Source: Escherichia phage ECO340P2. Taken from it: a DNA stretch of 64,000 nt. The stretch's first letter is position 1; every line of letters starts with the position of its first letter. Made by a program: the position numbers and the translations under genes. The stretch lies in the sequence record OP172792, one strand, 5' to 3'. Below are positions 2,580 to 20,591 of this stretch, piece after piece. The notes under the pieces are model-generated. The model was not told where the DNA came from, made no database searches, and was given only the letters and a program-made list of their open reading frames with translations.

Positions 2580-2585
2580 TAGATG

Positions 2586-2610: not shown

Positions 2611-2621
2611 AGGAGAGACTT

Positions 2622-2972: not shown

Positions 2973-3214
2973 AATACTTGTTGGTTGTGTTTGAAAATAT
3001 TTGTTTTGCAATAGGTTTGTTTGTTGTAATTTTTGTATTGACAAGCGTAATCAACGGCAGTAAAGTGAGTTTATACCGAGATGGAGAGCAGCTTTATTGC
3101 TTCTCTGGAGATTTCAAACACAGATGTATTAATAGTCAAAACGAGGAAAGCAAATATGAAAAAACTAGCCCTGATTTTAATTGGTTGTATCTTTTTAACA
3201 GCTTGCGAGGATGA
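2969..3214 (+). CDS. Possible small single-TM protein (uncertain; overlaps next gene)
   Basis: ATGA start/stop overlap with preceding ORF; N-terminal hydrophobic helix LLVVFENICFAIGLFVVIFVL; overlaps the lipoprotein start by about 59 nt, so may be spurious. Confidence 0.25.
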   Translation: MKYLLVVFENICFAIGLFVVIFVLTSVINGSKVSLYRDGEQLYCFSGDFKHRCINSQNEESKYEKTSPDFNWLYLFNSLRG

Positions 3215-3593: not shown

Positions 3594-3607
3594 TAAGGAG
3601 AAAAACA

Positions 3608-4201: not shown

Positions 4202-4204
4202 GTT

Positions 4205-4795: not shown

Positions 4796-5904
4796 CAAGT
4801 CCATTTTTAAAAGCAGCTACTGGTGGTCAGAAGAAGTCTGAAATGAGTGTATTCGCTGCAACAACAGATGCAAGTAAATCTGTATTCGCGCCAAGCGTGT
4901 TAGATGCCAGTCCTGTTTATGCACCAGCCGCACCGCAAGAAGTCCCAGTTTTGCCTTCTATGACCCGACAAGAGATCGAAGAGATTGGGGCAGAGGCAGG
5001 AACAACCTTGCGTTCCTTGAATGCCGAGGTATTAAAACATCAACGTAGTAATCAAGGCGATCAGATGAGTGAACGACTCACAGCTTTGATTAAACAGGCA
5101 AAACAACTTGATCCAAACTCTATTAAACAAAGCAAGGGTATTACTAAACTCATTAAAAAGGTCATGGGTATGAAAGAAGACCTGTTCGGGGAGTTTGATA
5201 ATGTTAATAACCGTATTGAAGAGTTAGTAAAGAACCTTCAAATGGATATTCGCAAAGAAGAAGATTCCTTAGTATATCTTGAAAAACTACATCAAGCTAT
5301 TGGACAATATGCTGCAAGTTTGAACCGAGATATGCAGCTTCTAACAGCAACCTATGAAAAAGAAGAGCAAGCTTTGGCTGCTCTTCCAGAAGATGCAGTA
5401 GAACAGCGACAAGTGATCCGAGATACTTTGGATCTTCTGGAGATTCGTATTGCGGATTTAAAAGCATTGCGCCTACTGTGTGTCCAAATGGGACCACGTG
5501 TACAAGGTATGCAAAAAGTTTCTGCAAGCTTAATGCGATCTGCGCGTAACATAGTAAATAATGTTATCCCTGCTTACTCTGCTAACTTCTCAATGTATAT
5601 TGAGAGCTTACGTCAAATGAAAGCCGCAGAAACACAGAATAACGTTCTTGATGAATTTAACCTGGCAATTAAATTAGGTAGTGATTTGGCTACACAAAAT
5701 CAGATTGAAGCCGCAGCATTGGCTAACCGTCAAGTGTTAGATATTGATACTCTGCGACACGATCAGGAAAACTTAGTTAAAATGCTGGAAGAAACAAATC
5801 GCATCAATACAGAAGCCCGTGCTGCTCGTGTTGATTATATTAATGAAGTTCAATCTCTGGAAGACGGGATGGTAGCTGCTGTAAAACGAGGACTTGGTAA
5901 ATGA
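4792..5904 (+). CDS. TelA-like (toxic anion resistance family) coiled-coil protein, tentative
   Basis: About 370 aa, disordered N-terminus then long coiled-coil-prone helices; size, composition and position between terC and terD fit TelA/KlaA. No diagnostic motif verified. Confidence 0.4.
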   Translation: MTSPFLKAATGGQKKSEMSVFAATTDASKSVFAPSVLDASPVYAPAAPQEVPVLPSMTRQEIEEIGAEAGTTLRSLNAEVLKHQRSNQGDQMSERLTALIKQAKQLDPNSIKQSKGITKLIKKVMGMKEDLFGEFDNVNNRIEELVKNLQMDIRKEEDSLVYLEKLHQAIGQYAASLNRDMQLLTATYEKEEQALAALPEDAVEQRQVIRDTLDLLEIRIADLKALRLLCVQMGPRVQGMQKVSASLMRSARNIVNNVIPAYSANFSMYIESLRQMKAAETQNNVLDEFNLAIKLGSDLATQNQIEAAALANRQVLDIDTLRHDQENLVKMLEETNRINTEARAARVDYINEVQSLEDGMVAAVKRGLGK

Positions 5905-6095
5905 GAATCCGTGTTTATATGATTGATGATAGCTTTGGTGTCCGTTATGATGACGAAAAACGATTCGCGCCGATTAGCGGCATACATCCCCTAAGTGTTT
6001 TGGCAGCTTGTCGTGATAAATATCTCTATGAAGCTTGTAATCATTTTGGTTTTGAGCTTCTTTCAGATGTAGAGTTTAATGAGGAGGAAGGATGA
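5901..6095 (+). CDS. Small acidic hypothetical protein
   Basis: ORF track; ATGA overlap with upstream gene; acidic C-terminus. Confidence 0.4.
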   Translation: MRIRVYMIDDSFGVRYDDEKRFAPISGIHPLSVLAACRDKYLYEACNHFGFELLSDVEFNEEEG

Positions 6096-6265
6096 AAATA
6101 TTACGCGTGAATATTGAAACCGCTTGGTGCGGATGTAATGAGGTTGTGGATATTGAAATTGAAGATGATATGTCTAAAGAGGATATAGAAGATCTTGCAC
6201 ACGAAACCTTTCAGGACTATTGTAGCTATGGGTTCCATATTTTAGAGGAGGAAGAAGATGTATAA
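6092..6265 (+). CDS. Small acidic hypothetical protein (57 aa, not in ORF track)
   Basis: ATG 6092 preceded by GAGGAGGAAGG; read by hand to stop at 6263-6265; very acidic. Confidence 0.3.
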   Translation: MKILRVNIETAWCGCNEVVDIEIEDDMSKEDIEDLAHETFQDYCSYGFHILEEEEDV

Positions 6266-6656
6266 TCCAACAGGTATTCTTTTAAAACTCACAGTAACAG
6301 ATCCTACTCTTTTCACCAAGTTAGTCAGTGGTGAAGTCTATGAAGTAATGAAAGATGACGACGGTTGGTGTTATCTTTGTGGCTACTACCTCTGTGATGC
6401 AGAAGAGTTAGAATCCATTACAACTAAAGGTTTTTATGAAGAACCAGGCTTCCGTGTGGAAACTACACAGAAACCTGATACCATTACGTTGACTCGACAG
6501 GAACTGATCACAATCATTGAAGATGCTTTTATTGATGGTTGGAATACACAAGATAATGATTGGGGTGGACCTGAAGCTTTTCTAGAACATCATAAAGCTT
6601 ACGGAGAATTTTGTGAAACCACTGTAGCTCTTGATAATCTGAAGGAGGGTTTGTAA
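6258..6656 (+). CDS. Acidic hypothetical protein
   Basis: ORF track; GAGGAGGAAGAAG RBS; strongly D/E-rich. Confidence 0.5.
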   Translation: MYNPTGILLKLTVTDPTLFTKLVSGEVYEVMKDDDGWCYLCGYYLCDAEELESITTKGFYEEPGFRVETTQKPDTITLTRQELITIIEDAFIDGWNTQDNDWGGPEAFLEHHKAYGEFCETTVALDNLKEGL

Positions 6657-7219
6657 TGGGTTGTTTTAGCTTTTTGTGTAAGGAATCGGGCAAAGCTGCC
6701 CTTTCTACTTCTTTCGACGGATCGCCTTGCTATCTCTTTCTTTTGAAAGATGGTGTTGTTATTGAAGAGATGTATGGCAACTACGATAGTTATGGTTGTG
6801 TTTTCTCTGGAAAGGAGGACGAAAATGGCGTTCGTGAACGGTTTGATTGGGTTATGGATTGGAGTAAGGTTTGTGATTTGATGCATTCCTCAAATCCAAG
6901 GGACGGTATCGCTATGGTGCTGGAAGAGTACTTTACAGGTGAAATCCCTACAGAACAATCTGACAGAGATCCTAACCAAGGTTGGGGTGATGGTGAAGAA
7001 GATCCAGATTGTTTTTTCAGCACAGAAAAGAATAAGTTTAAACGTGTTGACAACCCTTATCACAAAGTGCATAATACTCTCATTGAAACAGAAGATGACA
7101 AGATGGAAATTGAAGAAGATGATCCTCTTGTAACACTTCCTATAAGCGAGTTACAAAAGATTACTAAAGAAGCTTACGATTTGGGCTTCAAAATTGGTAG
7201 AGGAGGTATGCGTGTTTAG
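6656..7219 (+). CDS. Hypothetical protein with acidic C-terminal half
   Basis: ORF track; GGAGGG RBS; several Cys pairs; no recognisable family. Confidence 0.5.
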   Translation: MGCFSFLCKESGKAALSTSFDGSPCYLFLLKDGVVIEEMYGNYDSYGCVFSGKEDENGVRERFDWVMDWSKVCDLMHSSNPRDGIAMVLEEYFTGEIPTEQSDRDPNQGWGDGEEDPDCFFSTEKNKFKRVDNPYHKVHNTLIETEDDKMEIEEDDPLVTLPISELQKITKEAYDLGFKIGRGGMRV

Positions 7220-7484
7220 ATTCAATATTCAAGAAGAAAAGTATAAGGATTTACCTGTTCCTTTCGAAGATCTTGACGTAGGGGATACATTCATGTATTA
7301 TGCTGCCTATGAAGATGCAGGGTTGGATACTTACATTAATTTGGTGTTCATTAAAAGTTCTCCAAACAGCGCAATCTGCATCAGTGGATCGCAACGAGGT
7401 TATACACATTGTATCCCGCCAGATACAAATATGGTGGAAGTAGATTTAGAAGTTACCAATATCACACTTAAGAAGGAGAAATAA
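7212..7484 (+). CDS. Small protein, paralog A of a duplicated pair (partner of the TerD-headed vWA gene)
   Basis: GTG 7212 preceded by GGAGG; motifs DLDVGDTFMYYAAYEDAGLD and EVDLEVTNITLKK are shared with ORF 8506..8775. Confidence 0.5.
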   Translation: MFRFNIQEEKYKDLPVPFEDLDVGDTFMYYAAYEDAGLDTYINLVFIKSSPNSAICISGSQRGYTHCIPPDTNMVEVDLEVTNITLKKEK

Positions 7485-7485
7485 T

Positions 7486-8280
7486 ATGTCCGAGAAAATC
7501 AGCCTGAAAAAACGTCAAGAAAACCTTGCTTTCTCTCTGAAAAAGAATAAGAACCTGAATGAAGGTAAGATTGTTCTTCGTGTAGCATGTGCTCTAGATA
7601 TTTCTGGTAGTATGCATGGTCTATATGCTCGTGGAGTAGTGAGTGATTTTGTAGGTAAACTGCTCCCTTTTGGTATGCTGTTCGACGATAATGAACAAAT
7701 TGATATGTGGGCCTTCAATACAAGTTCTCAAGAGCTTACTCCAGCAACAGCAGACGTTTACGATGATTATGTTGGTAAATGTATGCGTAATGTTCGTATC
7801 GGAGGTGGAACAAATTACGCCCCTGTAATGGCAGATATCTACGATGAGTATTTTGGCACTGTTACCAAATATATTACCACTAAACAAGTGGTACAAGAGG
7901 AGGCTCCAAAGAAAGGCTTCTTTAATCGTCTGCTTGGTAAAACTGAAACAGTATCTGTAGAGCGTGAAAAGGTTGTAGCTGTATCTGAACCAGGTGCTGA
8001 CGTTACCCCTGGTGTTGTATTCTTCCAGACGGATGGTGAGAATGGTGATCCTAGTGCTGTTCGTCGTCTTATTGAAGAGAATAAGAATAAACCTATTTAT
8101 TGGTTCATGGTTGGCGTCGGTAATGAGAAGTTTGGCTTCCTGAAAGAACTGGCAAATGCTTATGATAATGTTGGTTTTATTGGCATTAAAGATTTAGACT
8201 TGACAGATTCAGAGCTTTATGACAAACTCTTATCTGAAGAGTTCGGAGAGTGGGTTGTTAAAGTAGGTGCTAAAAAATGA
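7486..8280 (+). CDS. vWA (MIDAS) protein with TerD-like N-terminal head; TerF/TerY-like
   Basis: N-terminus MSEKISLKK...FSLKK mimics the TerD start; LRVACALDISGSM is a vWA MIDAS DxSxS motif. Confidence 0.65.
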   Translation: MSEKISLKKRQENLAFSLKKNKNLNEGKIVLRVACALDISGSMHGLYARGVVSDFVGKLLPFGMLFDDNEQIDMWAFNTSSQELTPATADVYDDYVGKCMRNVRIGGGTNYAPVMADIYDEYFGTVTKYITTKQVVQEEAPKKGFFNRLLGKTETVSVEREKVVAVSEPGADVTPGVVFFQTDGENGDPSAVRRLIEENKNKPIYWFMVGVGNEKFGFLKELANAYDNVGFIGIKDLDLTDSELYDKLLSEEFGEWVVKVGAKK

Positions 8281-8525
8281 TCGACGAGCTTGCCTCTCAA
8301 GTCGTAGAAAATTATTGGCGCGAGAGAGAAGCTTTCATTATGCGCAGTCTCAAAGAATATTTCATTGGGACTGTGCGGATGGAAGATATTGTAAGTAGAG
8401 TAGAGATTCATGTATGGCCTGATTATGAAGAATGGGTTGACAAAGAAAATGAAAATGCTATAATTCTTCGTATATACAAACCGGAGATAACATTAGGAGG
8501 AAGAAGTGTTAAACTTCGAAATTGA
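8277..8525 (+). CDS. Hypothetical protein
   Basis: ORF track; ATGA overlap with upstream gene. Confidence 0.4.
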   Translation: MIDELASQVVENYWREREAFIMRSLKEYFIGTVRMEDIVSRVEIHVWPDYEEWVDKENENAIILRIYKPEITLGGRSVKLRN

Positions 8526-8775
8526 TGAGCAAAAAATAAATAAACGATGCCTTACCATTAAAGATTTGGATGTAGGAGATACTTTCGTCTATGAAAATGC
8601 ATTTGACGAAAATGGTTTAGACCTTAGTGAAGTCATTGTTTATTTAAAAGTAGATGATGGGGAAAATGATTATTCTGCTGTAGAATTAAACCATCATGCA
8701 CAATTAGTAGCAATCCAAAACACATCTAAGCTTTTGGAAGTAGAATTGACTGTAACTGGTATTACACTTAAATAA
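8506..8775 (+). CDS. Small protein, paralog B of the duplicated pair (partner of terD)
   Basis: GTG 8506 preceded by AGGAGG; shares DLDVGDTF..Y and L.VELTVTGITLK motifs with ORF 7212..7484. Confidence 0.5.
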   Translation: MLNFEIDEQKINKRCLTIKDLDVGDTFVYENAFDENGLDLSEVIVYLKVDDGENDYSAVELNHHAQLVAIQNTSKLLEVELTVTGITLK

Positions 8776-8790
8776 TAGAGGAGACAAAAG

Positions 8791-9393
8791 ATGACTGATA
8801 AAATTTCCCTGAAAAAAGGCTCTAGCGAAAAAATTTCCCTGAAGAAAGTTGCTCCGGCTCTGAAAGAACTGCGCCTGGAATTCTCTTGGAAATCTGATTC
8901 TAAACTGGATCTGGATGTAAGTGCACTGGTTTGTCGTCATAATGCCGCTGGCAATCCTGAAATGCTGTCTGCACGTCATCTGGTTTGCTATGCTAACAAG
9001 TTTGATCCTGAACGTTCTACCTTTGCTGGTGACGATGTTCGTGATGGGACTGGCAGCATGGAGCAGATTGATATTACTCTGGCTAAAATCTCTCCCGATG
9101 CACAAGAGATTGCCTTTGTTCTGACCATTGATGATGATACAGGTCTGAAACGTTTTGGTCATGCTTCTGAAGGTATGCTTAAAATCTTCGACTCCGAGTG
9201 TAATGTGGAAATTCTGGATTTTGACTTCCTGGCTCCTGAAGTAGCTGGCAACACAATCTGCCACGTGGCTTCCTTGGTTCGTGAAGATGGTGAATGGAAG
9301 CTGAAAGCATATGGTGTAGGTAAAGCTGGTCTGGATATTTGTGATGTGGTGATGGCCTTCGGTGGTAAAAAAGAATGGTATGAATGTCCATAA
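8791..9393 (+). CDS. terD: TerD-family protein
   Basis: Collinear with remembered enterobacterial TerD: ISLKKGSSEKISLKK, LDLDVSALVC, GDDVRDGTGS..IDITL, FVLTIDD and GEWKLKAYGVGKAG all match. Confidence 0.9.
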   Translation: MTDKISLKKGSSEKISLKKVAPALKELRLEFSWKSDSKLDLDVSALVCRHNAAGNPEMLSARHLVCYANKFDPERSTFAGDDVRDGTGSMEQIDITLAKISPDAQEIAFVLTIDDDTGLKRFGHASEGMLKIFDSECNVEILDFDFLAPEVAGNTICHVASLVREDGEWKLKAYGVGKAGLDICDVVMAFGGKKEWYECP

Positions 9394-9493: not shown

Positions 9494-10015
9494 TTGCTGA
9501 TAAAAAACTTTGTAACAGTTGCGTTACTATCCTTAACTGCTTTTACATTTACACCTGTTGTGGCGAAAGCCGAAGCTGCAAACGTAAAAACCGCTAAAGT
9601 AGTTCACAAATGTACAAAGCAATATAATGATAAAATTCTATTAGCTTGTGCAATTTACGCAGAAGGTCGCGGTCTGGGTAAAAAAGGAATGAATGCCGTT
9701 GGGAATGTGGTAATCAATAGAAGAAATGATGCCTACTTTCCTAACACAGTCAGAGGAGTCTTGTTCCAGAAAGGACAATTTTCATATGCGAAAACTTTTA
9801 ACGTAACAGAGAAAGATAAGTGGCAGGAAGCAAAAGCAATAGCGGAGCGTTTACTTTATTTAGAGAAACATTTTCCTGAATTGCGATCTGTTTTAGATGT
9901 TACTAAAGGTGCTCTATACTTCAAGAAACGGAATATAAGGACACACTGGGAACGCGATATGCGTCTTGTTTATCGAGATAAAGTGCATGGTTTCTATCTA
10001 CCAAAGGAGAGTTAA
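9494..10015 (+). CDS. Secreted cell-wall hydrolase (SleB/CwlJ-type) with N-terminal signal peptide
   Basis: TTG start after AAAGGAGG; signal-like N-terminus; core CAIYAEGRGLGKKGMNAVGNVVINRRNDAYFPNTVRGVLFQKGQFS matches the SleB-type fold; own promoter upstream. Confidence 0.75.
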   Translation: MLIKNFVTVALLSLTAFTFTPVVAKAEAANVKTAKVVHKCTKQYNDKILLACAIYAEGRGLGKKGMNAVGNVVINRRNDAYFPNTVRGVLFQKGQFSYAKTFNVTEKDKWQEAKAIAERLLYLEKHFPELRSVLDVTKGALYFKKRNIRTHWERDMRLVYRDKVHGFYLPKES

Positions 10016-10718: not shown

Positions 10719-11282
10719 ATGATTTATTATATTACTCCCTATCTGACAGGAAATATCGGCAAGGCTATTAATGAAGCCATTGCCGTTCTTCCAGATGATA
10801 GTTGGGTGTGTTTAAGAGATACTGATACAATGTTCCTTCTGCCTGATCAACCATCTATGTTGGAAGATCTTGTTATGTCAAACCCACCTTTTGATGTAAT
10901 AGGTGCAACTTGTAATAGACTAGGTAGTGGTTATCAGCTTTTCTCTAACCAAATTAATGATGACCCAGACATTCTAAACCATATAGAATATGCTAAAATT
11001 GCACGGGAATATCATAAAACAAACGTTGAAGAAGTTCCTTTTGGAACACCTTTAGCTGGTTTCTTTTTGCTTTTTAGAAAATCATTGTGGAATGAGATTC
11101 CTTTCGAAGAAAAATCTATCCAATTTGACTTAATTTTCTCTCGCACTTTACATGAAAAAGGAAAGAGGTTAGGATTGATGCGGGGAATGTATCTGTTCCA
11201 CATTTATAGGTTAGGTCAAACAAATCCTCAACGGTCTATAAACCATTTATTACACTGTCACGATCACAGTAAAACTATTTAG
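10719..11282 (+). CDS. Possible GT-A-type glycosyltransferase (tentative)
   Basis: GGAGGGGGGAG RBS; CLRDTDTMFL resembles a DxD-type nucleotide-sugar site; weak. Confidence 0.35.
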   Translation: MIYYITPYLTGNIGKAINEAIAVLPDDSWVCLRDTDTMFLLPDQPSMLEDLVMSNPPFDVIGATCNRLGSGYQLFSNQINDDPDILNHIEYAKIAREYHKTNVEEVPFGTPLAGFFLLFRKSLWNEIPFEEKSIQFDLIFSRTLHEKGKRLGLMRGMYLFHIYRLGQTNPQRSINHLLHCHDHSKTI

Positions 11283-11290
11283 GAGAGAAA

Positions 11291-11974
11291 ATGGAAAATA
11301 TTAAAATCGGAGTAGGTGTTATCACTGTAGGTGTCCGTCCACTTAAAGATTACCTTGTAACAGATCCACGTGCAGATTTTCGAGTATTCAACGATCCAGA
11401 TCGTAAAGGTGTAGCTTATGCCAGGAATGAACTTATGCACCAGTTCTATGAAGAAGGTTATGATTATTGGTTTATTTTTGACGATGATTGTTACCCAGTT
11501 ATGGAGGGATGGGAAACATATTTTGTAGACCAAGCTATTTCTGGAAGATGGGATTTCTTTGGTATGCCGGAGTATTTCAAAGATAAAGTTGTCGGAAGCA
11601 AAGGAGAAGTTATTCTCTGGGAACTTGCAATGTGTCAATTTGCAATGTATTCTCGTGCCGTTGTTGAGAAGATGGGTTATTTCCGCCCTTACACTCACGG
11701 TTATGGTTTTGAAGATGCCGAATGGGGACACCGTTTGAAAGCTGCTGGTTTGAATCATGGTATTCAGGCAACACCTTGTCCACTTCGCATTATGGCTTAT
11801 ATTCACCCAGACGATGTTTTTGGAAACAATCCTATGCCTTTTGCTAATCTGACTAAAGAAGAGAAAGAAGCCGCTATTGGGATTAACTGGGAAGAATATA
11901 AAGCGTCTTTAGAGGATATTAAAAATGGGAAAATCCGACTTTCCTATGAGGAGGCAATGGCACATGTCAAATAA
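11291..11974 (+). CDS. Glycosyltransferase, GT-A fold (DxD motif)
   Basis: Motif YWFIFDDDCYP in a GT2-like context; followed by two GT-B paralogs. Confidence 0.5.
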   Translation: MENIKIGVGVITVGVRPLKDYLVTDPRADFRVFNDPDRKGVAYARNELMHQFYEEGYDYWFIFDDDCYPVMEGWETYFVDQAISGRWDFFGMPEYFKDKVVGSKGEVILWELAMCQFAMYSRAVVEKMGYFRPYTHGYGFEDAEWGHRLKAAGLNHGIQATPCPLRIMAYIHPDDVFGNNPMPFANLTKEEKEAAIGINWEEYKASLEDIKNGKIRLSYEEAMAHVK

Positions 11975-12911
11975 AAAATGGTCTAAACTAAAAATTGATG
12001 CAAAACCTCACAGCGGTTGTGATTATCATCGTATTGTTATGCCATTTGACAACAATAATTTTCAACCTAAAAAAGATATTGTTGTGTTTAACCGTATTCA
12101 CTCTAAAGGAGCAGAATACGTTCTGTCTTTGAAACGTCAAGGTGTTAAGATTGTTGTAGATTTAGATGATTTCTACCAACTTAATCCAGAACACTATTTA
12201 GCAAGTTTATATGAGTCAAACACCCATGCTATTGTAGCTATGGTTAAGCTTGCAGATGTGGTTATTGTGACTACGGAATACTTGGCATATAAAATCCGAC
12301 ATTTAAATAGAAATGTTGTTGTGATCCGAAATGCACTTCCTTTTGATAGTGGACAGTTCACTTTGTCAAATGATCGTTCGTCCGGTACCCCTGTTGTATG
12401 GGCTGGCGGCGCTAGTCATGAACCTGATTTACGACTGGTTTCTAATACTTTTGATGATGAACTTCTTACTATTGCAGGATATGAAGCTTCACAGAGCATC
12501 ACAGGGCAAGAATGGATTAAGATCCGTAGAAATTTACCAAATGCTAAATATAAAGCTGCCGTAAAAGATTTAGATAATTACATGAGTGTTTATGAGAGTC
12601 ATGCTATTGCTATAGCTCCTTTGGTAGATAATGATTTTAATAATTGTAAAAGTAATCTCAAAATCCTGGAAGCTGGAGCAAAAGGTATTCCGATTGTTTG
12701 TTCTAAGGTGTTACCTTATTTTAACCCTGTAGATGCTCGCGCTGTTGCTTATGCAGAGAATAAAGCAGAGTGGCATTACGAAATTGTTAAGCTTCTTCGC
12801 AATCCAAACTATCGGGAAGATCGTGGTTTGTTCTTGGCGGAACATGTTCGAACACATTATAATCTGGCAGATGCAAACGAGTTGCGACGCCAGGTTATTG
12901 AAAGTTTGTAG
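11964..12911 (+). CDS. Glycosyltransferase, GT-B fold (GT1/GT4-like), paralog 1
   Basis: C-terminal NCKSNLKILEAGAKGIPIV resembles the GT4 EAxxxGxP sugar-donor motif; start ATG 11964 after GAGGAGG (track start 11925 lacks RBS). Confidence 0.5.
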   Translation: MSNKKWSKLKIDAKPHSGCDYHRIVMPFDNNNFQPKKDIVVFNRIHSKGAEYVLSLKRQGVKIVVDLDDFYQLNPEHYLASLYESNTHAIVAMVKLADVVIVTTEYLAYKIRHLNRNVVVIRNALPFDSGQFTLSNDRSSGTPVVWAGGASHEPDLRLVSNTFDDELLTIAGYEASQSITGQEWIKIRRNLPNAKYKAAVKDLDNYMSVYESHAIAIAPLVDNDFNNCKSNLKILEAGAKGIPIVCSKVLPYFNPVDARAVAYAENKAEWHYEIVKLLRNPNYREDRGLFLAEHVRTHYNLADANELRRQVIESL

Positions 12912-12918
12912 GTGAAGT

Positions 12919-13863
12919 ATGGGACAAATAATTCTTGACAATCGTAACGGAATCAATTATAGTGTCTGCGATTTCCATAGGGTAGTGCTGCCTTACTCAA
13001 GGCAGTTCTCTTCACAACCTAAACACAACGTTTTCGTTTTTAACGGAGTGCCAACAAAAGGTAAAGAGGGCTTTTTAGCCCTTAAAAACCTAGGCTTTAA
13101 AATGGTTATGGATTTGGATGACTCTTTAGTTATTCCAAAAGGACACATGTTAGAAGGTATTTTTGAATCAGGTATTCGTGAACATTTAAAATGGTTTTTA
13201 GAGCACAGTGACCTTGTTACAACTACGACACCTGCCTTGCAAGTTGAACTTTCACAATACAATGATAATGTGCACATAATCCCTAATGGACTTCCTTACG
13301 ATGAAGGTCAATTTGTGTTGACCCGTGATCGCTACTCCAAATCTCCTTTGGTCTGGGCTGGAAGTGAAACACATAAACAAGATTTGGCTATCTTGCCTGA
13401 TTTTGGTAAAGATCTTACAATATGTGGTTTTCGTAGGGATTCTGAAGTTTTAAGTAGTCGTGAATGGTCTGTAATCAGAGAAAATGTAGCACCAACTTGT
13501 GTTTATGAAGGTGTAAGACCATATTCCAACTACATGGAATCTTACGATGGTCATCAAATCAGTCTTGCACCATTAATCGATAACGTGTTTAATAATGCAA
13601 AAAGCAATCTTAAAATTCTTGAGGCAGGTGCTAAAGGTTTACCTTTAATCTGTTCTCCTCGTGAGAACTATCATACACAAGAGTTTAAAGATTTGTTATT
13701 CTTTGCTGAAACACCTTCCGAGTGGAAAGATATTACGGAATACTTATTAAGTGCTCCCGATGTTTGCATGGAGAAAGGATTAGCATTAGCTAAGTATGTC
13801 AGGACTCATTATCACATTGATGTGTTGAATGAGCGTCGTAGACTTTTATTTGAGGAGCTATAA
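12919..13863 (+). CDS. Glycosyltransferase, GT-B fold, paralog 2
   Basis: Collinear with 11964..12911 (APLIDNVFNNAKSNLKILEAGAKGLPLI versus APLVDNDFNNCKSNLKILEAGAKGIPIV). Confidence 0.5.
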   Translation: MGQIILDNRNGINYSVCDFHRVVLPYSRQFSSQPKHNVFVFNGVPTKGKEGFLALKNLGFKMVMDLDDSLVIPKGHMLEGIFESGIREHLKWFLEHSDLVTTTTPALQVELSQYNDNVHIIPNGLPYDEGQFVLTRDRYSKSPLVWAGSETHKQDLAILPDFGKDLTICGFRRDSEVLSSREWSVIRENVAPTCVYEGVRPYSNYMESYDGHQISLAPLIDNVFNNAKSNLKILEAGAKGLPLICSPRENYHTQEFKDLLFFAETPSEWKDITEYLLSAPDVCMEKGLALAKYVRTHYHIDVLNERRRLLFEEL

Positions 13864-14141
13864 TGATTAACACTTTTGATTTTGAATACACCACTCGTAA
13901 TGGGAAAACTTTAGTCGTGGAGGTGGATTACTATTATGAAGAACCTAATCCACTTTCTCGTGAAAGCGATTGGGACTACCACGGAGGGCTTTTAATTGAC
14001 GGTATTCGTTTTTATGAAGGATCTACAGAAGTTTTTGAAAAAGATTTAAATGTAACTGTGGCAGAAATTGCTTTTCAATTTAGAAAGCACATGGAAGAAC
14101 TAGAAGCAGAATATATGATGGAGACTAACGAACCATTTTAA
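13863..14141 (+). CDS. Hypothetical protein
   Basis: ORF track; ATGA overlap with upstream gene. Confidence 0.45.
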   Translation: MINTFDFEYTTRNGKTLVVEVDYYYEEPNPLSRESDWDYHGGLLIDGIRFYEGSTEVFEKDLNVTVAEIAFQFRKHMEELEAEYMMETNEPF

Positions 14142-14153
14142 CAGGAGAACAAA

Positions 14154-15932
14154 GTGTCGCACATTATAACTAAATATGGATTTGATGTTGATCTTAGCAA
14201 GGAAGGACATACAGGTTGTCCGCGCTGCATGAAAAATGGCAAGGATCGCTCTCGTAATAACCTGATGGTTTATGGATTAGATTCTAATGGAGAGCATAAA
14301 GGTGCTAAGTGCTTTGCGTGTGAATACACTATTCCTAGCGTAGAATGGTTACGAGAAAATGGTGAAGTTTTAGAAGAAGAGGAGGAGATTGTGGGTTCGG
14401 AATTTAATAAACAGATTCATCGTAAAATTGTTCAAGAAACATCAACCAACCCACGTGGTTATCGAGGCATTAAAGAAAAAGTTTCATCTTTCTATGGTGT
14501 TCGTTATGAATACCGTCAGGAAGGGGATCAGATGGTAGTAGAAAGCTGTTTATATCCAACTACTATCGGTAAAGAATTGGTTGGTTTCAAGCGTCGTATT
14601 CATCCTAAAGACTTCAGTAAGCCTATTGGTCAAGTAGGTAAAGATGTAGATCTTTTTGGACAAATTCGTTTTGCAGACCGTTCTCATACTGTTGTAATTA
14701 CAGGTGGTGAACACGATGCTCTGGCAGCTTATCAAATGCTGTCTGAAAACTTGGATAGTAAATATGAGCTTCCAGCAGTAGTAAGTGGCACAACTGGTGA
14801 AACCAGTATGTATAAACAAGTTCAGGCACAATATCCTTTCTTTGAAAAATTTAAGAAAATTATTGTTTGCATGGATAATGACAAAGCAGGTAATGAAGCA
14901 TTTGAAAATATTGTTAAGGTGCTGCCTCGTAACAAAGTATACCGTATGCAGATGGACCTTAAAGATGCCAATCAGTATCTGGAAGAAGGTCGTGCAAAAG
15001 ATTTCGTAAAAGCTTTTTGGAGTGCTCGTCTGTACACACCAGCAGGTGTTTATGCTTCCAACGTCTTGTATGAAGCTGCATTAGAATGCTTGGAATCCAA
15101 GATGATTACCTTGCCTCCTTTTATGCGTGTTGCTGCAAATATGCTGGGTGGTGGTTTAGTAGAAGAAGAGATTACAGTTATCCTGGCAAAGACTAGTATC
15201 GGTAAAACTTTGATGGTGAATGAGATCACCAAACATATTATCGTTGCGCACCCAGAACATACCCTAGGTATTCTGTCCTTGGAAGCAACTTATAAGAAAT
15301 ATTCTCGTAACCTGTTGTCCTCTTTCCTACACATTCCTCTACACAGGAAAACACCTGAAGAGAAATTTCAAATCTTGGAAGAGAATAAAGAAAAAATCCT
15401 AGATTTTTACGAAAGAGAAGATGGATCACCACGTTTTTATGTGTGTGATGATCGTGGAGCAGATGTGGAGTCTATCAAAGAAAAAGTTTTGGAGATGATC
15501 ATCTATTTTGGAGTAACAATTCTTGTTATCGACCCTTATTCTGATTTGCTTTCTGGTATGGATGTTCAAGCCCAGGAAGAGTTAGCAACATGGTTGAAGC
15601 GTATCATGAAAGAATATGCTATAACTATTATCGTCATCTCACACGTTAAGAAATCAGCTAATGGTGGCAATGAACACTTAACAGAAGACGATGCAATGGG
15701 TAGTAGTTTCTTGGCTAAAGGTGCTGGTATTACATTGGCTTTGGAACGAGATAAAGCTGCTGAAGACCCTGTAGAACGCAATACAACTCATTGCTTTATC
15801 CTAAAAAACCGTGAGTTCTCGGAAACTGGTCCGGCAGGGCAGTTTTACTATGACATTAGAACTGCAACTCTGCACGACAAAGAGCAGTATTTCAACAATC
15901 CTGCTAATTTGCCTACGGATAGCAACTACTAA
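14154..15932 (+). CDS. Bifunctional DNA primase-helicase (T7 gp4-like)
   Basis: GTG start after CAGGAG; N-terminal zinc ribbon (CPRC...CFAC), TOPRIM-like IVCMDNDKAGNEAF, DnaB-type Walker A AKTSIGKT and Walker B VLVIDPYSD. Confidence 0.8.
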   Translation: MSHIITKYGFDVDLSKEGHTGCPRCMKNGKDRSRNNLMVYGLDSNGEHKGAKCFACEYTIPSVEWLRENGEVLEEEEEIVGSEFNKQIHRKIVQETSTNPRGYRGIKEKVSSFYGVRYEYRQEGDQMVVESCLYPTTIGKELVGFKRRIHPKDFSKPIGQVGKDVDLFGQIRFADRSHTVVITGGEHDALAAYQMLSENLDSKYELPAVVSGTTGETSMYKQVQAQYPFFEKFKKIIVCMDNDKAGNEAFENIVKVLPRNKVYRMQMDLKDANQYLEEGRAKDFVKAFWSARLYTPAGVYASNVLYEAALECLESKMITLPPFMRVAANMLGGGLVEEEITVILAKTSIGKTLMVNEITKHIIVAHPEHTLGILSLEATYKKYSRNLLSSFLHIPLHRKTPEEKFQILEENKEKILDFYEREDGSPRFYVCDDRGADVESIKEKVLEMIIYFGVTILVIDPYSDLLSGMDVQAQEELATWLKRIMKEYAITIIVISHVKKSANGGNEHLTEDDAMGSSFLAKGAGITLALERDKAAEDPVERNTTHCFILKNREFSETGPAGQFYYDIRTATLHDKEQYFNNPANLPTDSNY

Positions 15933-15950
15933 GGGCTTCGGCCCTTTTAT
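15932..15950 (+). terminator. Rho-independent terminator after primase-helicase
   Basis: AGGGC-TTCG-GCCCT followed by TTTAT. Confidence 0.7.
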
Positions 15951-15961
15951 TAAAATACCTG

Positions 15962-15990
15962 TTGACAACTGTGCGGAAGGGATTTATACT
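15962..15990 (+). promoter_or_regulatory. Strong sigma70-type promoter (TTGACA-N17-TATACT)
   Basis: -35 TTGACA 15962-15967, 17-nt spacer, -10 TATACT 15985-15990; just after the primase-helicase terminator. Confidence 0.65.
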
Positions 15991-16023
15991 TGTCTCATCA
16001 ACCAAACAAGAGGAGAAGTAAAA

Positions 16024-16455
16024 ATGCGTATGACAATCGATCTGAATGCAAAAGTTAAAGCTGCTGGTGCTCTGGGTGCTGGTGTTATTAAACATAAACA
16101 AGCGTTGGCGTTTGCCATCCCACATATGATTGTTGAGGATCATCCTGAAGAGTTTGCTGTAAAAGTTGTTGAGAACAATGTCTCTGTTATTGAACATATC
16201 CCAACTGGACGTTCTTACCGTGTTGTTTCTTCTAAAGGTTTCCGTTTCGATGTAAGCCCTTCTTTCACAAAAGGGGCTGGTCGTAGTAAAGTAGGTATTC
16301 TTTCTTACAAATATTACATCAATAAAGTTGCAGATGGTGTTGCATTCTGTCGTGTAAGTGAGGGTAAAGTAGATATCATCTTTAAAAATACCAAAAACAT
16401 GGTTATTTCTGATGATGGTAAAGTTGACCTCACTATTGAGTTCGCTAACAACTAA
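16024..16455 (+). CDS. Hypothetical protein (first gene after a strong promoter)
   Basis: ATG 16024 after AGAGGAGAAG; the upstream part of the track ORF overlaps the primase gene. Confidence 0.5.
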   Translation: MRMTIDLNAKVKAAGALGAGVIKHKQALAFAIPHMIVEDHPEEFAVKVVENNVSVIEHIPTGRSYRVVSSKGFRFDVSPSFTKGAGRSKVGILSYKYYINKVADGVAFCRVSEGKVDIIFKNTKNMVISDDGKVDLTIEFANN

Positions 16456-16464
16456 GGAGGACTA

Positions 16465-17259
16465 TTGAGCAAGTTGAACACACTTGATCAATATTACACT
16501 AACCCCGCTTATGCGGGGTTCTTATGTGATAAGATCAAAGAAATTTTTGGAGAGGAAGCTAACTACGTAGAACCATCTGCGGGAGAAGGAGCTTTCTCTT
16601 CTTGTTTTAAAAACATAACTTCTTTTGATATTGACCCTAAGTTTGAAGATTGTATTGAGGCAGATTTTTTAGCCCAATCTGTTGAGTCTGTTGGTAGTGT
16701 AACTGCTTTTGTCGGTAATCCTCCATTTGGAAAAAATGCTAGTCTTGCCATTAAATTCTTTAACCATTGTGCTGAAATGCTAGATAACGAAGGTGGTATT
16801 TGTTTTATCTTGCCTCGCACATTTCAAAAAATCTTTTTTGCACACAAACTAAATCCCCACATGCATCTTCTTTACGAAGAAGAATGTCCAAAAGGATCTT
16901 TTATTCTTCATGGAGAACCTTGGGATGTTCCTTGTGTATTCCAGATATGGATTAAACGCAACGAGAAGCGTTCTCCCGTTGTTTTAGGAGAAAATCGACT
17001 ATTTGTATTAGGCAACAGTAAAGACTACGACATAGCCGTTAGGAGAGCGGGAGCAAGTGCAGGTAAAGTGTTATCAGAAGAAGATTCTTTATCTGAAGCG
17101 TCTACCTATTTTTTAAAAGCCTTGACTTCTGATCTTAAAACGCGTATCATTGAGGCTTACCCGTTACTTAAAGCTGAAGCTAGTAAAACTGCGGGAGTAA
17201 GAAGTTTAAGTTTAAAAGAACTTCAGTGGGTTCTGGAGAACATTAGAAAGGAGGAATAG
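16465..17259 (+). CDS. DNA methyltransferase (amino-MTase, likely N6-adenine; gamma-type motif order)
   Basis: TTG start after AAGGAGG; motif I-like EPSAGEGAF precedes catalytic NPPFG; N-terminal DQYYTNP. Confidence 0.55.
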   Translation: MSKLNTLDQYYTNPAYAGFLCDKIKEIFGEEANYVEPSAGEGAFSSCFKNITSFDIDPKFEDCIEADFLAQSVESVGSVTAFVGNPPFGKNASLAIKFFNHCAEMLDNEGGICFILPRTFQKIFFAHKLNPHMHLLYEEECPKGSFILHGEPWDVPCVFQIWIKRNEKRSPVVLGENRLFVLGNSKDYDIAVRRAGASAGKVLSEEDSLSEASTYFLKALTSDLKTRIIEAYPLLKAEASKTAGVRSLSLKELQWVLENIRKEE

Positions 17260-20200
17260 TGAGTAAGTTTACATGGGATATTGAAGCAAACGGATTGTTG
17301 AATAATGACACTATTGATTATTTGGCTAGTCCTTATCGTCTCAAAGACACATTTCAAATGCACTGTATTGTCTTAGAGAACCATGAAACAGGAGAAATAG
17401 TAGCTTTCCACGATGGCCCTAAATACATTTTTGATGGGCGTCCTTATGAAGAATCAGATGGTAAATACACGTATGTTCTTAAAGAGTATGTGGCGCAAGA
17501 TTACACACATTTTCAACTAAAAGATTTCCCAGACTTTATTAATCATGAAGGTTATTTTCAAGACAAGCCGGAATATCTGGTTGAAATGGCTGTGGCACAT
17601 AACGGTATCAACTACGACTGGTTGGCTACAAAACTGTTTTACGGATTGGATTACAGTGTTAAATATAATACATGGGGTAAAAGCAAGGTAAAACTTATTG
17701 ACTCCTTGATTTTGAGTAAAGTGTTGAACCCAGATCGAAAGATTGAGGGCAAATCAGGACATAGCTTGGCAGCACTTTCTCGAAAGGCAGGTGGTGATGT
17801 AAAAATAGATTTCCGTAAAGAGATTCCAGAAGAAGATCGATTTAAGACTTTTGCTGCGGATATGCTTTATTACTGTATCTATGACAACAAAGCCAATACG
17901 AGCGTATATAATTACCTTATGGAAGAATGGGGTGATTATGATAAATGGGAAGGTCCGTTTGAACTTGAACAACGTGTAGCAGACATTATTACACGCCAGG
18001 AACACCGTGGGTTTGCTTTTAACATGAAGCAAGCAGAAGAGAACCTTGCTTTTTTGGATGCCGAAATGGAGCGTCTTCGTTTACTCGTTGAGCCTATTTT
18101 GCCACCTAAGCCAGCAACAAAAGGTTATCTTAAGGCTTTTATCCCACCTAAGTTGCAAATTAAAAAGAACTTAGAACCAACTAACCATATGATCAATTTT
18201 GCTAAGAAACATGATGGTCATTTGGAAGAGAGAGATGGGGACTGGTGGTTAGTTATGTTGGGGAAAGAGTGGAAACTGCCAGTTGCAGCAGACGAACCTT
18301 TATGTGATCCTCATATCCCTGCAACATTGAATGATACAACCCATATTAAAAACTGGCTTGTAGGTTTAGGTTGGGTACCATCAGAATATAAAGATAAAGA
18401 CTTGACTCTTAAATCTGGCACCAAGATTAAAAAGAGTGAGGAAGAACTTCAGAAAGGTATTCGAGCTTACGTTGAGCAAACTCTATCTTCTAATTTTTGT
18501 CAGGATCGTTGTGATCACCTTGAGTGCACACCGGAAACCTTAGAAAGGAAAATTCAAGAGCGTATAGCAAAAGGTAAAGGTCGCGGTCTTAAAGTGTTGA
18601 CTAACCCATGTTTTACCAAAGGTCAGGAAAAAGAAATTTGTCCTAACCTGCAAGCTTTGGGTGAGAAATTTCCTTATGCTACACAGATTGTAGAATACTT
18701 AACGTATAAACATCGTAGGAACTCTATTTTAGGTGGTGGTGCTGATTGGGAAGAAGACGAAGAAGATCAAGAATACGATAAAGGTTTCTTAGCCGCAGTA
18801 AGGGCGGATGGTCGTATTCCTACCCCAGCCGCTACATGTGATGCTGCAACCTCTCGTATGAAGCATAGGTCTGTCGCTAATATTCCTCGTGTTACATCTT
18901 TGTTTGGATGGGAGATGCGTAACCTGTTTGGTGTGGAGGTTCCTAAATACTTCCAGATCGGCTACGACTTCGACTCTTTGGAAGCAAAAATTGAATCACA
19001 CTACTGTGTGCCGATGGATGCTCAAGCTTTGACTCGTAAAGGTTGGGTAGGATATCACGACCTGAAGGAAGGGGATGAGATTTTAGGGTACAATGCTGAA
19101 ACAGGTCTGAAAGAATGGACTAAAGTAAAAGGTAAGGTCTTCTATAAAAATAGTAAGACGTTTGAGATTAAAGGGAAATCACACACTTACCGTGCAACAG
19201 CAGATCACCGTTGGTATGTTAATACCCGTAGTAAAGGGAATACTTATGTGCCTAAAGTCAGAACAACTGCCGAGCTTTGCACAGGAGATAACATTATTTG
19301 TAATGCTCCATTTAATATGGAACAAGATCAGGTAAATAGTTTAACTTCTGTTCAACAAGGTAAATGGGATGTTCCGTGGGTAGAACGTGTAGTTAATATG
19401 TCTCATGCCGAGCGTGTAGCTTTCTTGGAAGGTTTCTTGATTGCAGATGGTTACTGGCACGAACATAAACAAAAACCTGTTTGGCGTTGGGCGCAGAACC
19501 CAGGTGAACTTTTTGAAGCAGCTTTAACTGCCTCGTACCTGGTGCATGGAGGCAATATCTCTGTAGCTTTCAATACAAAAGAGCAGAAAGTAAAAGTGGC
19601 AACATTGACTAACCGCTCTCACATTCCTGTTCAAAGTTTGACTATTGAAGAGTGGGGTGTAGAGGATGTTTGGTGTCCACAAACAGAACTTGGTACGTGG
19701 GTCATGCGTCAGAAAGACTGCATTACCATCACAGGAAACTGTTGGCGGTACGAGCCGGAGCCACACGAGTATTGTAACGCTCTGTTGTTAGAGAAACCTA
19801 ATGATGTTCACACAATGATGGCAAAACGTATCACTGAAACTATCGGACGTAAATTTGAACGTAGTCCTGCTAAATCTGTTAAGTATGGTATTACCTATGG
19901 TGCACAAGCCGACAAGGTTGCTAAAACAATTGGTAGCGATAAGTTTACAGGTCAATTAGTGTTTGATGCTTTCTGGGAAGCTGCATTCCCATTGGCGCGT
20001 CTTAAAGAACGTTTAAACGATTTCTGGGTTAAGACTGGTAAACAATATGTTTTGGGTATTGACGGTCGTAAGGTTCCTACTCGTTCTGCTCACGCGATTC
20101 TTAACTCTCTGTTCCAAAGTGGTGGGGTTATCTGTGCTAAACGTGCAATGGTTATTTATGACGACATGATCGAAGAAGAAGGACTAAGTGTTGACTTCTT

Positions 20201-20591
20201 TAAAGATGACTGGAAGAATAAAGACTTCGTGCAACAAATGATTGCATATCACGATGAAGCCCAGCTTGAAGTTTCTCGTAACCTTGTAGAATTTAAATGG
20301 TTTTCACCTGAATCATTAGGTTGGAAGAAAGTAGACGATCCTGAAGAACAAAAGAAAATTGATAAAGAATGCCTTGCTAAAGTTGAAGAATGGAAGCATA
20401 ATAAGGAAAAAGAGACGGGACAAATTTGGGCTAACATTCATGAATCTCCCAAAGGTGGATGGTTTACAGCCTATAGTCGGGCAGGTGAACTTGCTGCCTT
20501 AGCTGTTACTAAGGCTGGAGAATTTTACAATCTTAATGTTCAGCTTACTGCCGGATATGATGTGGGTAATTCTTGGGCGTCCTGTCACTGA
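17259..20591 (+). CDS. Family A DNA polymerase with 3'-5' exonuclease domain, interrupted by an intein
   Basis: Exo I WDIEANGL; motif A DFDSLEAKIESHY; after the insertion DVHT, motif B RSPAKSVKYGITYGAQ and motif C IAYHDEAQ. GTG start after AAGGAGGAA. Confidence 0.85.
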   Translation: MSKFTWDIEANGLLNNDTIDYLASPYRLKDTFQMHCIVLENHETGEIVAFHDGPKYIFDGRPYEESDGKYTYVLKEYVAQDYTHFQLKDFPDFINHEGYFQDKPEYLVEMAVAHNGINYDWLATKLFYGLDYSVKYNTWGKSKVKLIDSLILSKVLNPDRKIEGKSGHSLAALSRKAGGDVKIDFRKEIPEEDRFKTFAADMLYYCIYDNKANTSVYNYLMEEWGDYDKWEGPFELEQRVADIITRQEHRGFAFNMKQAEENLAFLDAEMERLRLLVEPILPPKPATKGYLKAFIPPKLQIKKNLEPTNHMINFAKKHDGHLEERDGDWWLVMLGKEWKLPVAADEPLCDPHIPATLNDTTHIKNWLVGLGWVPSEYKDKDLTLKSGTKIKKSEEELQKGIRAYVEQTLSSNFCQDRCDHLECTPETLERKIQERIAKGKGRGLKVLTNPCFTKGQEKEICPNLQALGEKFPYATQIVEYLTYKHRRNSILGGGADWEEDEEDQEYDKGFLAAVRADGRIPTPAATCDAATSRMKHRSVANIPRVTSLFGWEMRNLFGVEVPKYFQIGYDFDSLEAKIESHYCVPMDAQALTRKGWVGYHDLKEGDEILGYNAETGLKEWTKVKGKVFYKNSKTFEIKGKSHTYRATADHRWYVNTRSKGNTYVPKVRTTAELCTGDNIICNAPFNMEQDQVNSLTSVQQGKWDVPWVERVVNMSHAERVAFLEGFLIADGYWHEHKQKPVWRWAQNPGELFEAALTASYLVHGGNISVAFNTKEQKVKVATLTNRSHIPVQSLTIEEWGVEDVWCPQTELGTWVMRQKDCITITGNCWRYEPEPHEYCNALLLEKPNDVHTMMAKRITETIGRKFERSPAKSVKYGITYGAQADKVAKTIGSDKFTGQLVFDAFWEAAFPLARLKERLNDFWVKTGKQYVLGIDGRKVPTRSAHAILNSLFQSGGVICAKRAMVIYDDMIEEEGLSVDFFKDDWKNKDFVQQMIAYHDEAQLEVSRNLVEFKWFSPESLGWKKVDDPEEQKKIDKECLAKVEEWKHNKEKETGQIWANIHESPKGGWFTAYSRAGELAALAVTKAGEFYNLNVQLTAGYDVGNSWASCH
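19005..19739 (+). mobile_element. Intein (about 245 aa) in DNA polymerase, with a LAGLIDADG-like motif
   Basis: Starts with Cys right after motif A; block-B-like TADHRW; LEGFLIADGYW resembles LAGLIDADG; ends ...ITITGN followed by Cys +1. Penultimate Gly instead of His is non-canonical. Confidence 0.55.

Follow-up and report, generated by a model that had tools for sequence, protein, structure and literature searches.

Four glycosyltransferase genes and a separate orphan methyltransferase gene in the replication region of Escherichia phage ECO340P2

The 64,000-nucleotide stretch of Escherichia phage ECO340P2 analysed here (record OP172792; called the window throughout) carries, at positions 10,719 to 17,259 and within the replication region, four glycosyltransferase (GT) genes, GT1 to GT4, and the gene of an orphan amino-methyltransferase (MTase). 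The four GTs likely use deoxythymidine diphosphate (dTDP)-L-rhamnose or a related 6-deoxyhexose as the sugar donor. Among the possible acceptors, proteins of the phage's own virion rank first, a choice to which we give somewhat less than an even chance. The MTase gene, together with a small gene in front of it, is a cassette apart from the GTs, and its product most likely methylates DNA.

The window phage is a member of Phapecoctavirus (subfamily Stephanstirmvirinae) and is about 97% identical to the type phage, phAPEC8; the region itself matched 64 phage records (Phapecoctavirus, with phAPEC8 among them) at 96.8-96.9% nucleotide identity. In the RefSeq annotation of phAPEC8, the same positions contain gp071-074, all four named glycosyltransferases, then a primase/helicase flanked by two hypothetical proteins, gp078 as a 'putative DNA N6-adenine methyltransferase', and DNA polymerase I. 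Since the five gene calls are kept in 64 phage records and the same five functions are given in RefSeq, they are not chance open reading frames (ORFs); the four-GT cluster and the neighbouring orphan MTase gene are real and already annotated. All five genes lie on the plus strand, exactly where an earlier reading of the window from its letters alone (the sequence-only reading) had placed them. That reading was also right in setting the GTs between a hydrolase gene (of the cell-wall type, Hydrolase_2 in Pfam, 9494-10015) and the primase-helicase gene (Toprim_2 and DnaB_C, 14154-15932). No experimental work on these GTs or on the DNA chemistry of Stephanstirmvirinae was found in the literature searched, and the idea that the GTs serve DNA hypermodification is already in print.

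The glycosyltransferases and their probable sugar donor

GT1 (10719..11282, + strand; 187 residues) is a small enzyme with a DxD motif at D34-T-D36; it matched phrog_14179, 'glycosyltransferase' (E 3e-112), and gave no match in Pfam. D34-x-D36 and H161 were invariant in the homolog alignment, and the AlphaFold2 (AF2) model, built with 22 homologs, had a GT-A fold with a predicted local distance difference test (pLDDT) score of 89. The Foldseek search of the PDB with this model returned solely GT-A enzymes, namely LH3, COLGALT1, LARGE1, GalNAc-T2, and the Listeria rhamnosyltransferase RmlT (E 1e-4 to 4e-3; template modelling (TM) score about 0.5), and the best viral structural match was the C-terminal domain of the two-domain GT of Cellulophaga phage phi18:2 (TM 0.86). 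The GT1 family comprised 978 representatives, among which fusions to other GT domains or to Methyltransf_24 were frequent; this set has no gene context and is silent on the acceptor. GT2 (11291..11974, + strand; 227 residues; phrog_2456, E 7e-78) carries the motifs FIFDDD and YGFED. F-x-F-D64-D65-D66 and Y138-G-x-E-D142 were invariant and H172 almost invariant among its homologs, and its Pfam matches (TAGT, Glycos_transf_2, and Glyco_transf_7C) were all sub-threshold. GT1, by its model and DxD motif, and GT2, by the invariant D64-D65-D66 and E141-D142 together with the sub-threshold Pfam matches, are GT-A glycosyltransferases, in agreement with the prediction of two GT-A-like genes, one of them with a DDD motif. 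Profile-profile comparison found no relationship between the two.

The two paralogous GT-B genes of the sequence-only reading were likewise recovered: GT3 (11964..12911, + strand; 315 residues; phrog_7162, E 5e-149) and GT4 (12919..13863, + strand; 314 residues) share 40.6% identity (E 2e-76). GT3 matched the Pfam models Glyco_trans_1_4 and Glyco_trans_1_2 below threshold, and GT4 scored 24.7 bits with Glyco_trans_1_2, whose cutoff is 25; PF13524 was precomputed on most homologs. A GAGGAGG ribosome-binding site stands in front of the RefSeq start of GT3 at 11964, and a start at 11925, which would give a longer ORF, is improbable. The AF2 model of GT4 (pLDDT 94) had a GT-B fold, and the top ones among its 240 PDB matches with E < 1e-3 in Foldseek were all GT-B, with PglA, GlgM, MshA, BshA, PimA, GtfC/Gtf3, and SdgB as the best (E about 1e-9; TM about 0.55-0.64). 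Judged by this model, with its two Rossmann domains, the GT4 protein is predicted to have the GT-B fold of the enzyme family that is also called GT4. None of GT1 to GT4 had a transmembrane segment (maximum 19-residue Kyte-Doolittle mean 1.65), and sequence searches of PDB chains with GT1, GT2, GT4, and the MTase gave nothing usable. A single GT-B gene is present in the Klebsiella phage KP2025 and in three metagenomic relatives, and its product showed 47-63% identity to GT3 and 37-40% to GT4, which was itself confined to Phapecoctavirus and Justusliebigvirus. The lone GT-B of these phages is thus the ortholog of GT3, by which GT3 is the ancestral copy and GT4 a later duplicate specific to the E. 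coli lineage.

The order GT1-GT2-GT3-GT4-small ORF-primase is kept in the phi92-like phage Bas61 (EmilieFrey) at 65-77% protein identity, and KP2025 has just GT1 and GT3 at this locus. In a Serratia prophage, homologs of GT1, GT2, and GT3 (41%, 35%, and 51% identity), with the order kept, stand between lysis genes and terminase/HK97-type head genes. Further occurrences were found in viral and metagenomic contigs carrying homologs, which are given L numbers here. The small phage contig L004 has GT-B and GT2 homologs between the terminase and portal genes, L027 has the module immediately upstream of the terminase, portal, and major capsid protein genes, and in L030 and L034 the module adjoins tail genes (tape measure, tail lysozyme or DUF3383). 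The core of this portable module is one or two GT-A genes with one GT-B gene, and it is present in unrelated small phages as well. The small conserved ORF behind GT4 (13863..14141, + strand; 92 residues; phrog_4240, E 1e-32) lies between the last GT-B gene and the primase-helicase gene in all the large myovirus relatives examined (EmilieFrey, KP2025, L012, L013, and L014); it may go with the GT module or with the primase. L004 also has, among its structural genes and about 6 kb from the GT pair, a gene of the Nmad5 type (16754-17359, minus strand; 'nucleotide modification associated domain 5', E 2e-41), which is the sole hint of DNA modification among the GT-module contexts examined.

The sugar donor was considered from the genome of phAPEC8, whose RmlA, RmlB, RmlC, and RmlD score above the NCBIfam equivalog cutoffs (464/361, 431/365, 225/156, and 237/224 bits, respectively). 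The four genes lie about 70 kb from the GTs, among genes for ribonucleotide reductase, glutaredoxin, and a ThyX-like protein. Because the rml operon is outside the 64-kb window, its presence in the window phage is deduced from phAPEC8 and relatives. RmlC of at least 95% identity was found in 64 phage records, which is the number that carry the GT region at this level (at least 95%), and RmlC of Justusliebigvirus, the phi92-like genus, showed about 62%. In two metagenomic relatives of this phage group, a gene for a nucleoside diphosphate-sugar epimerase/4,6-dehydratase lies within or adjoining the GT module and immediately ahead of the primase-helicase gene (L014 2667-3737; L026 7952-9016). As RmlABCD is complete in phAPEC8, dTDP-L-rhamnose is the probable GT donor; the donor is likely this sugar or a related 6-deoxyhexose. 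rmlC and rmlD are missing from many E. coli strains, and dTDP-L-rhamnose made by the phage itself would give independence from the O-antigen type of the host, in keeping with a broad host range.

Candidate acceptors of the glycan

From the observed folds, motifs, homologies, gene neighbourhoods, and rml pathway, we infer a donor, an acceptor, and a biological role as follows. GT1 to GT4, as soluble cytoplasmic enzymes, would build a short rhamnose-containing oligosaccharide sugar by sugar, and this oligosaccharide would be placed on a non-DNA acceptor, most likely one or more virion proteins. The glycan on the virion would resemble the O-glycans of the capsid and tail-tube subunits of Che8-type mycobacteriophages. 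According to three reports that cite Freeman 2023 (PMC11256854, PMC12619734, PMC13445384), the C-termini of the capsid and tail-tube subunits of Che8 (Cheoctovirus) carry O-glycans that are put on by phage-encoded GTs. GT2 is homologous to a Cheoctovirus GT: in hhalign, the profile of the GT2 family aligned with the N-terminal domain of RedBird gp102, a 478-residue 'galactosyltransferase', with 99.4% probability (E 2.4e-21; 195 columns; 27% identity). When GT2 was used in tblastn, 249 Mycobacterium phage records and zero T-even records were matched. The places of the module in small phages, within or close to genes for packaging, head or tail, also fit a virion acceptor.

Several observations weigh against virion proteins as the acceptor. 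The second Cheoctovirus GT, RedBird gp104, showed no similarity to GT1 in profile-profile comparison, and the RedBird gp102 ortholog is a candidate for the gene required in Che8. No obvious Ser/Thr-rich C-terminal tag was seen by inspection on the major capsid, tube, sheath, and decoration proteins of the window, an inspection that is no valid test either way. No report of glycosylated virions for any member of Stephanstirmvirinae was found in the literature searched, and virion glycosylation has reportedly hardly been seen beyond actinobacteriophages (Freeman et al.). The sites of the module in small phages, by lysis, terminase or tail genes, are also usual for unrelated 'moron' genes. In all the large myovirus relatives, the GT module is inside the early replication operon, directly upstream of the primase-helicase and DNA polymerase genes, like the T4 DNA glucosyltransferases. 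Besides, 11 of the 18 members of the GT2 family matched the model of TAGT, the DNA 5-hydroxymethylcytosine (5-hmC) glycosyltransferase family, at E 0.01 or better (best 1.1e-4), all of them sub-threshold.

These last two points are shared with the proposal that the GTs put rhamnose or other sugars on a modified base, in the manner of 5-hmC of T4, by which restriction would be evaded. The rhamnose pathway was pointed out by Olsen et al. (2020), who suggested that hydroxymethylated nucleotides are glycosylated (PMC7552041), Vitt et al. (2024) repeated the hydroxymethyl-glycosylation idea (PMC10844046), and the sequence-only reading had taken the placement of the genes as a sign of hypermodification or methylation for anti-restriction. 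The location of the rml operon among nucleotide-metabolism genes, called 'peculiar' by Olsen et al. (PMC7552041), and the Nmad5 gene near the GT pair of L004 are consistent with this proposal, as is the similarity of GT2 to T-even enzymes; GT2 itself scored 19.3 bits against a cutoff of 27.5 with TAGT, over residues 32-68 only, around the DxD motif, and had a local match to phrog_842, the T-even hydroxymethylcytosine glucosyltransferase family. However, the hydroxymethylase that such a pathway requires in T4 was not found. The best tblastn match of T4 gp42 had E 7.3 in the window, as expected from the earlier statement that no base-hydroxymethylase is seen there, and E 1.2 in the window and phAPEC8 together, a search of limited sensitivity. 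A check of the rest of the genome, which the sequence-only reading had suggested and which was run on the 97%-identical phAPEC8, gave the same result, with no hydroxymethylase annotated and none by tblastn; nor is any ThyA/gp42 hydroxymethylase, TET/JBP or other base-modifying enzyme annotated in phAPEC8 or the window. The only protein of phAPEC8 that resembles a thymidylate synthase, annotated as 'thymidylate synthase', matches ThyX weakly (31 bits; cutoff 87.9). By the similarity noted in the record, this ThyX-like gene is shared with rV5 and PVP-SE1, and there were zero Vequintavirus records among the GT matches listed. Around the GT-B relatives in 80 viral loci, tblastn detected no gp42-like gene within 10 kb. 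The alpha- and beta-glucosyltransferases of T4 (a-gt and b-gt) were absent from the top 50 PDB matches of GT4 in Foldseek and had no tblastn match in the window or phAPEC8. Moreover, the phi92-like phages Bas60-62 of the BASEL collection were described as 'exceptionally susceptible' to restriction-modification (RM) 'despite ... a putative dTDP glycosylation machinery' (PMC8594841), a susceptibility echoed in PMC10844046, and RM-sensitive Bas61 has the syntenic four-GT cluster. HincII fingerprinting was also routine on a collection of 19 phages that included Phapecoctavirus and Justusliebigvirus isolates (PMC10269720). In view of the missing hydroxymethylase, the GT4-like fold, and the RM-sensitive relatives (Bas60-62, and Vequintavirus phages with an MTase ortholog), the anti-restriction proposal was not borne out, and sugars on a hypermodified base seem quite improbable. 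A rhamnose glycan put on phage DNA without a ThyA-type hydroxymethylase, through an acceptor of an unconventional kind or at sparse sites of specific sequence that leave restriction sensitivity intact, is more improbable still; if true, a glycan on phage DNA would be a new chemistry or class of DNA modification.

The same enzymes could act outside DNA and the virion. The sequence-only reading had named modification of host surface glycans as its alternative, and it is possible, although short of the best supported: the GTs would use dTDP-rhamnose on a lipid-linked host glycan (lipopolysaccharide (LPS) core, enterobacterial common antigen (ECA) or other), and the effect would be a block of superinfection, less sticking of progeny to debris or, in temperate carriers of the module, lysogenic conversion. 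The closest structures of the GT-B enzymes include enzymes with lipid-linked or membrane acceptors (PglA, PimA, and PimB'), the BASEL annotators named GT3 and GT4 'putative disaccharide synthase', surface glycans (ECA/N4 glycan receptor (NGR), LPS core) are receptors of these phages, and the module of the Serratia prophage stands after the lysis genes, in a classic moron position. On the other side, the GTs have no membrane segment, the cluster encodes no GtrA/GtrB-type flippase or bactoprenol transferase, and the strongest specific homology of GT2 leads not to an LPS enzyme but to a GT from the genus of Che8, whose virions are glycosylated. These phages are virulent with a short cycle, and a complete change of glycan in lytic infection was argued to be futile by the BASEL authors (PMC11990801). 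We consider an envelope acceptor, and the effects that would follow from it, a reasonable but rather unlikely alternative. A seroconversion system of the Gtr type was rejected, as the cluster has no GtrA, GtrB or membrane GT and the GTs have no membrane helix. Less probable than an envelope glycan is another soluble acceptor, either a host or non-structural phage protein (for take-over or anti-defence) or a small molecule such as a Ter-linked nucleoside-like metabolite. It would fit the PRTase_3/HAD/Macro/TerC/TelA/vWA-TerF/TerD set directly upstream, in the same orientation and syntenic in KP2025 and metagenomic relatives, the presence of the small-molecule GTs MshA and BshA among the GT4-like folds, and the apparent early expression of the GT genes from host-type promoter-like sites; there is, however, neither precedent nor specific homology for any given acceptor of this kind, and small phages carry the GT module with no Ter genes. 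The two sets are therefore separable, and a single system made up of the GTs and the upstream Ter genes was rejected as the principal explanation.

The Ter-type set of the window spans 486-9393 on the plus strand, with genes for Macro (486-1046), TerC (a membrane protein, 1605-2579), SprT-like (4205-4795), TelA (4792-5904), vWA-TerF-like (7486-8280), and TerD-like (8791-9393) proteins. In phAPEC8, genes for a ComF-like PRTase_3 protein and a HAD hydrolase lie further upstream of the Ter set (122208-124778). The set resembles the systems for a 'nucleoside-like metabolite' with Ter genes that Anantharaman, Iyer, and Aravind predicted in 2012.

With virion proteins retained as the tentative acceptor, the present analysis shifts the focus to virion glycoproteins beside nucleosides, splits the MTase from the GTs, and defines a GT-A/GT-A/GT-B core. 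Phapecoctavirus and Justusliebigvirus phages have a broad host range and have repeatedly been proposed for therapy and biocontrol. If virions are glycosylated, a rhamnose glycan on the particles could alter how antibodies recognise them, how stable they are, and their pharmacokinetics and adsorption, effects of a kind reported for Che8, and the virions of Stephanstirmvirinae could prove to be the first glycosylated ones among phages of Gram-negative bacteria, a possibility that we hold with the same reserve as the acceptor itself.

The methyltransferase cassette and neighbouring genes

The MTase gene (16465..17259, + strand; 264 residues; phrog_5172, E 2e-110) follows the gene of a hypothetical 143-residue protein (16024..16455, + strand; phrog_9938, E 5e-62), and its stop codon overlaps the GTG start of the DNA polymerase gene at 17259, so that the description of an amino-methyltransferase with NPPFG directly before the DNA polymerase was accurate. 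Between the GTs and this pair lies a strong sigma-70-like promoter site, TTGACA-17-TATACT (15962..15990, + strand; 11/12 consensus matches). It lies where phAPEC8 has its annotated 'putative host dependent promoter' and is a consensus match only; as a putative promoter, it would divide a GT/primase unit from a unit of the 143-residue protein, MTase, and polymerase genes. The MTase gene and the 143-residue gene are missing at the syntenic site in EmilieFrey, which bears the GTs. Conversely, Vequintavirus (rV5-like) phages, of which no record was among the GT matches listed, carry an MTase ortholog with 54% identity in a different genomic neighbourhood. Because their phyletic distributions are independent, the MTase was not grouped with the GTs; the MTase and 143-residue genes are a cassette apart from them with its own promoter-like site, and the earlier treatment of the four GTs and the MTase as one group was given up.

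A homolog of the 143-residue protein (30% identity, E 1e-12) adjoins the MTase ortholog in the Vequintavirus phage MaxTheCat. The gene order of the pair is inverted between Phapecoctavirus and Vequintavirus. The more distant MTase homologs of Pseudomonas phage KIL2 and Agrobacterium phage Atu_ph07 have in common another conserved small gene, located downstream (46% identity). The repeated pairing of this MTase family with a small gene suggests a two-component unit. The MTase-small gene pairs were located at 16024-16455/16465-17259 in the window and at 4001-5240, 1480-2584, and 1489-2542 in the loci L015, L017, and L018, respectively. No endonuclease gene adjoins the MTase gene of the window, whose neighbours are those of the 143-residue protein and the DNA polymerase; the MTase homologs of MaxTheCat, KIL2, and Atu_ph07 are likewise without an adjoining endonuclease gene, and the DUF262 and HNH genes near the homolog of phage GAP32 are unrelated.

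The MTase is of the (N/D)PPF type and has the motif order of the gamma class, with motif I (VEPSAGEGAF) about 45 residues before GNPPFG (motif IV). E36-P-x-x-G40-x-G42 and N85-P-P-F-G89 were invariant across five distant homologs, the least similar of them at 28% identity, and the C-terminal half was conserved. With these features and its match to phrog_799, 'DNA methyltransferase' (E 1e-10), the MTase is most likely a DNA N6-adenine methyltransferase with sequence specificity, which would mark replicating phage DNA. A target in ribosomal or transfer RNA, as an N6-adenosine or other amino-methyltransferase, has points in its favour that count against this assignment. The MTase reached 15.6 bits against a cutoff of 25.3 with Eco57I of Pfam and had no NCBIfam match, so that no DNA-methylase model of either collection reaches threshold. 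The five-homolog profile matched Ta1320 (E 0.006), M.TaqI (0.13), and PH1948/METTL5 (0.19-0.21) in the PDB, with Ta1320, PH1948, and METTL5 scoring equal to or better than M.TaqI; as the matches to METTL5-type ribosomal RNA N6-methyladenosine enzymes are weak like that to M.TaqI, an RNA target keeps some probability. All of these PDB matches are, however, too weak to discriminate, and the phrog_799 match, the translational coupling to the DNA polymerase, and the position beside a DnaQ-like exonuclease in Vequintavirus point to DNA. Furthermore, every homolog found comes from a phage record, in a collection limited to phages, and is annotated as an orphan DNA methylase. We thus regard an RNA target as unlikely. 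Vequintavirus phages fall in the same RM-sensitive group as Bas60-62 (PMC8594841). Since these carriers of MTase orthologs are RM-sensitive, the MTase gives no general protection against the RM systems tested there.

The name 'DNA methyltransferase' is also used for other genes of these phages. In RefSeq it is given to phAPEC8 gp117, which corresponds to a 159-residue ORF between the portal and head genes of the window (57289-57768, - strand). This protein hit Peptidase_S78_2, the family of XkdF-like serine proteases of phages, at E 1.4e-11, by which the name looks like a mis-annotation and a prohead protease is more likely. Two further phAPEC8 proteins of this name, gp177 and gp194, had no support from Pfam or NCBIfam. 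The DNA polymerase downstream of the MTase (17259-20591) has 1110 residues versus 865 in phAPEC8, with 99.5-100% identity flanking an insertion of 244 residues (residues 584-827). The insertion, encoded at 19008-19739, starts with Cys (CVPMDAQ...) and ends with ...ITGN, followed by Cys. From these ends it looks like an intein that is missing from phAPEC8; it matched none of the intein and homing-endonuclease models of Pfam. Among the records that carry the GT cluster or the MTase are 'Campylobacter phage' entries MG065635-MG065672 (B15, C3, C5, C9, C11, C12, C15, and A141). These 'Campylobacter jejuni' records match at the identities of E. coli Phapecoctavirus, Justusliebigvirus, and Vequintavirus phages (GT4 of B15, 98.7%), and they look like coliphage genomes under a wrong host name.

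Comparison with known systems

The MTase resembles the orphan N6-adenine MTases of large phages (the rV5 family; gamma-class M.TaqI) in having motif I before NPPF, a variable C-terminal domain, and no partner endonuclease. It is unrelated to T4 Dam by tblastn, it differs from the gamma-class enzymes in its distance to M.TaqI (E 0.13) and in its small partner gene, and its substrate class is assigned here from sequence.

The GT genes recall T-even DNA glucosylation (T4 alpha-GT and beta-GT, the TAGT-type second GT of T2/T6, and gp42), since they lie amid replication genes of a large virulent coliphage and encode both GT-A and GT-B folds. They differ in that no hydroxymethylase was found, that sequence similarity or close fold similarity to a-gt/b-gt is lacking, and that the relatives are RM-sensitive; the donor is uridine diphosphate-glucose in T-even phages versus, likely, a dTDP-6-deoxyhexose here. 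The best structural matches of the GT4 protein are retaining GT-B enzymes of the GT4 family (PglA, MshA, BshA, PimA, GtfC/Gtf3, and SdgB), with the protein O-glycosyltransferases Gtf3, GtfC, and SdgB among them. Identity to these enzymes is just 12-16%, at which the acceptor cannot be read from the match, the phage proteins are shorter (about 315 residues), and the Pfam group-1 models score at or below threshold.

Virus-encoded rhamnose glycans that are placed on the capsid independently of the host are made by chlorovirus PBCV-1, whose A064R has two rhamnosyltransferase domains and a methyltransferase domain; the relatives of GT1 are likewise often fused to GT domains and to Methyltransf_24. 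PBCV-1 is a eukaryotic virus and its glycans are N-linked, and the likeness drawn here is one of description. The closest parallel in phages is that of the cluster F mycobacteriophages (Che8, Cheoctovirus). The present system, known here from its genes, differs from theirs in its Gram-negative host, in belonging to a virulent 150-kb myovirus, in having its own dTDP-rhamnose pathway, and in that GT1, GT3, and GT4 are without a counterpart there. Both have soluble phage-encoded GTs, several of them side by side, and GT2 is homologous to its cluster F relative over almost its full length.

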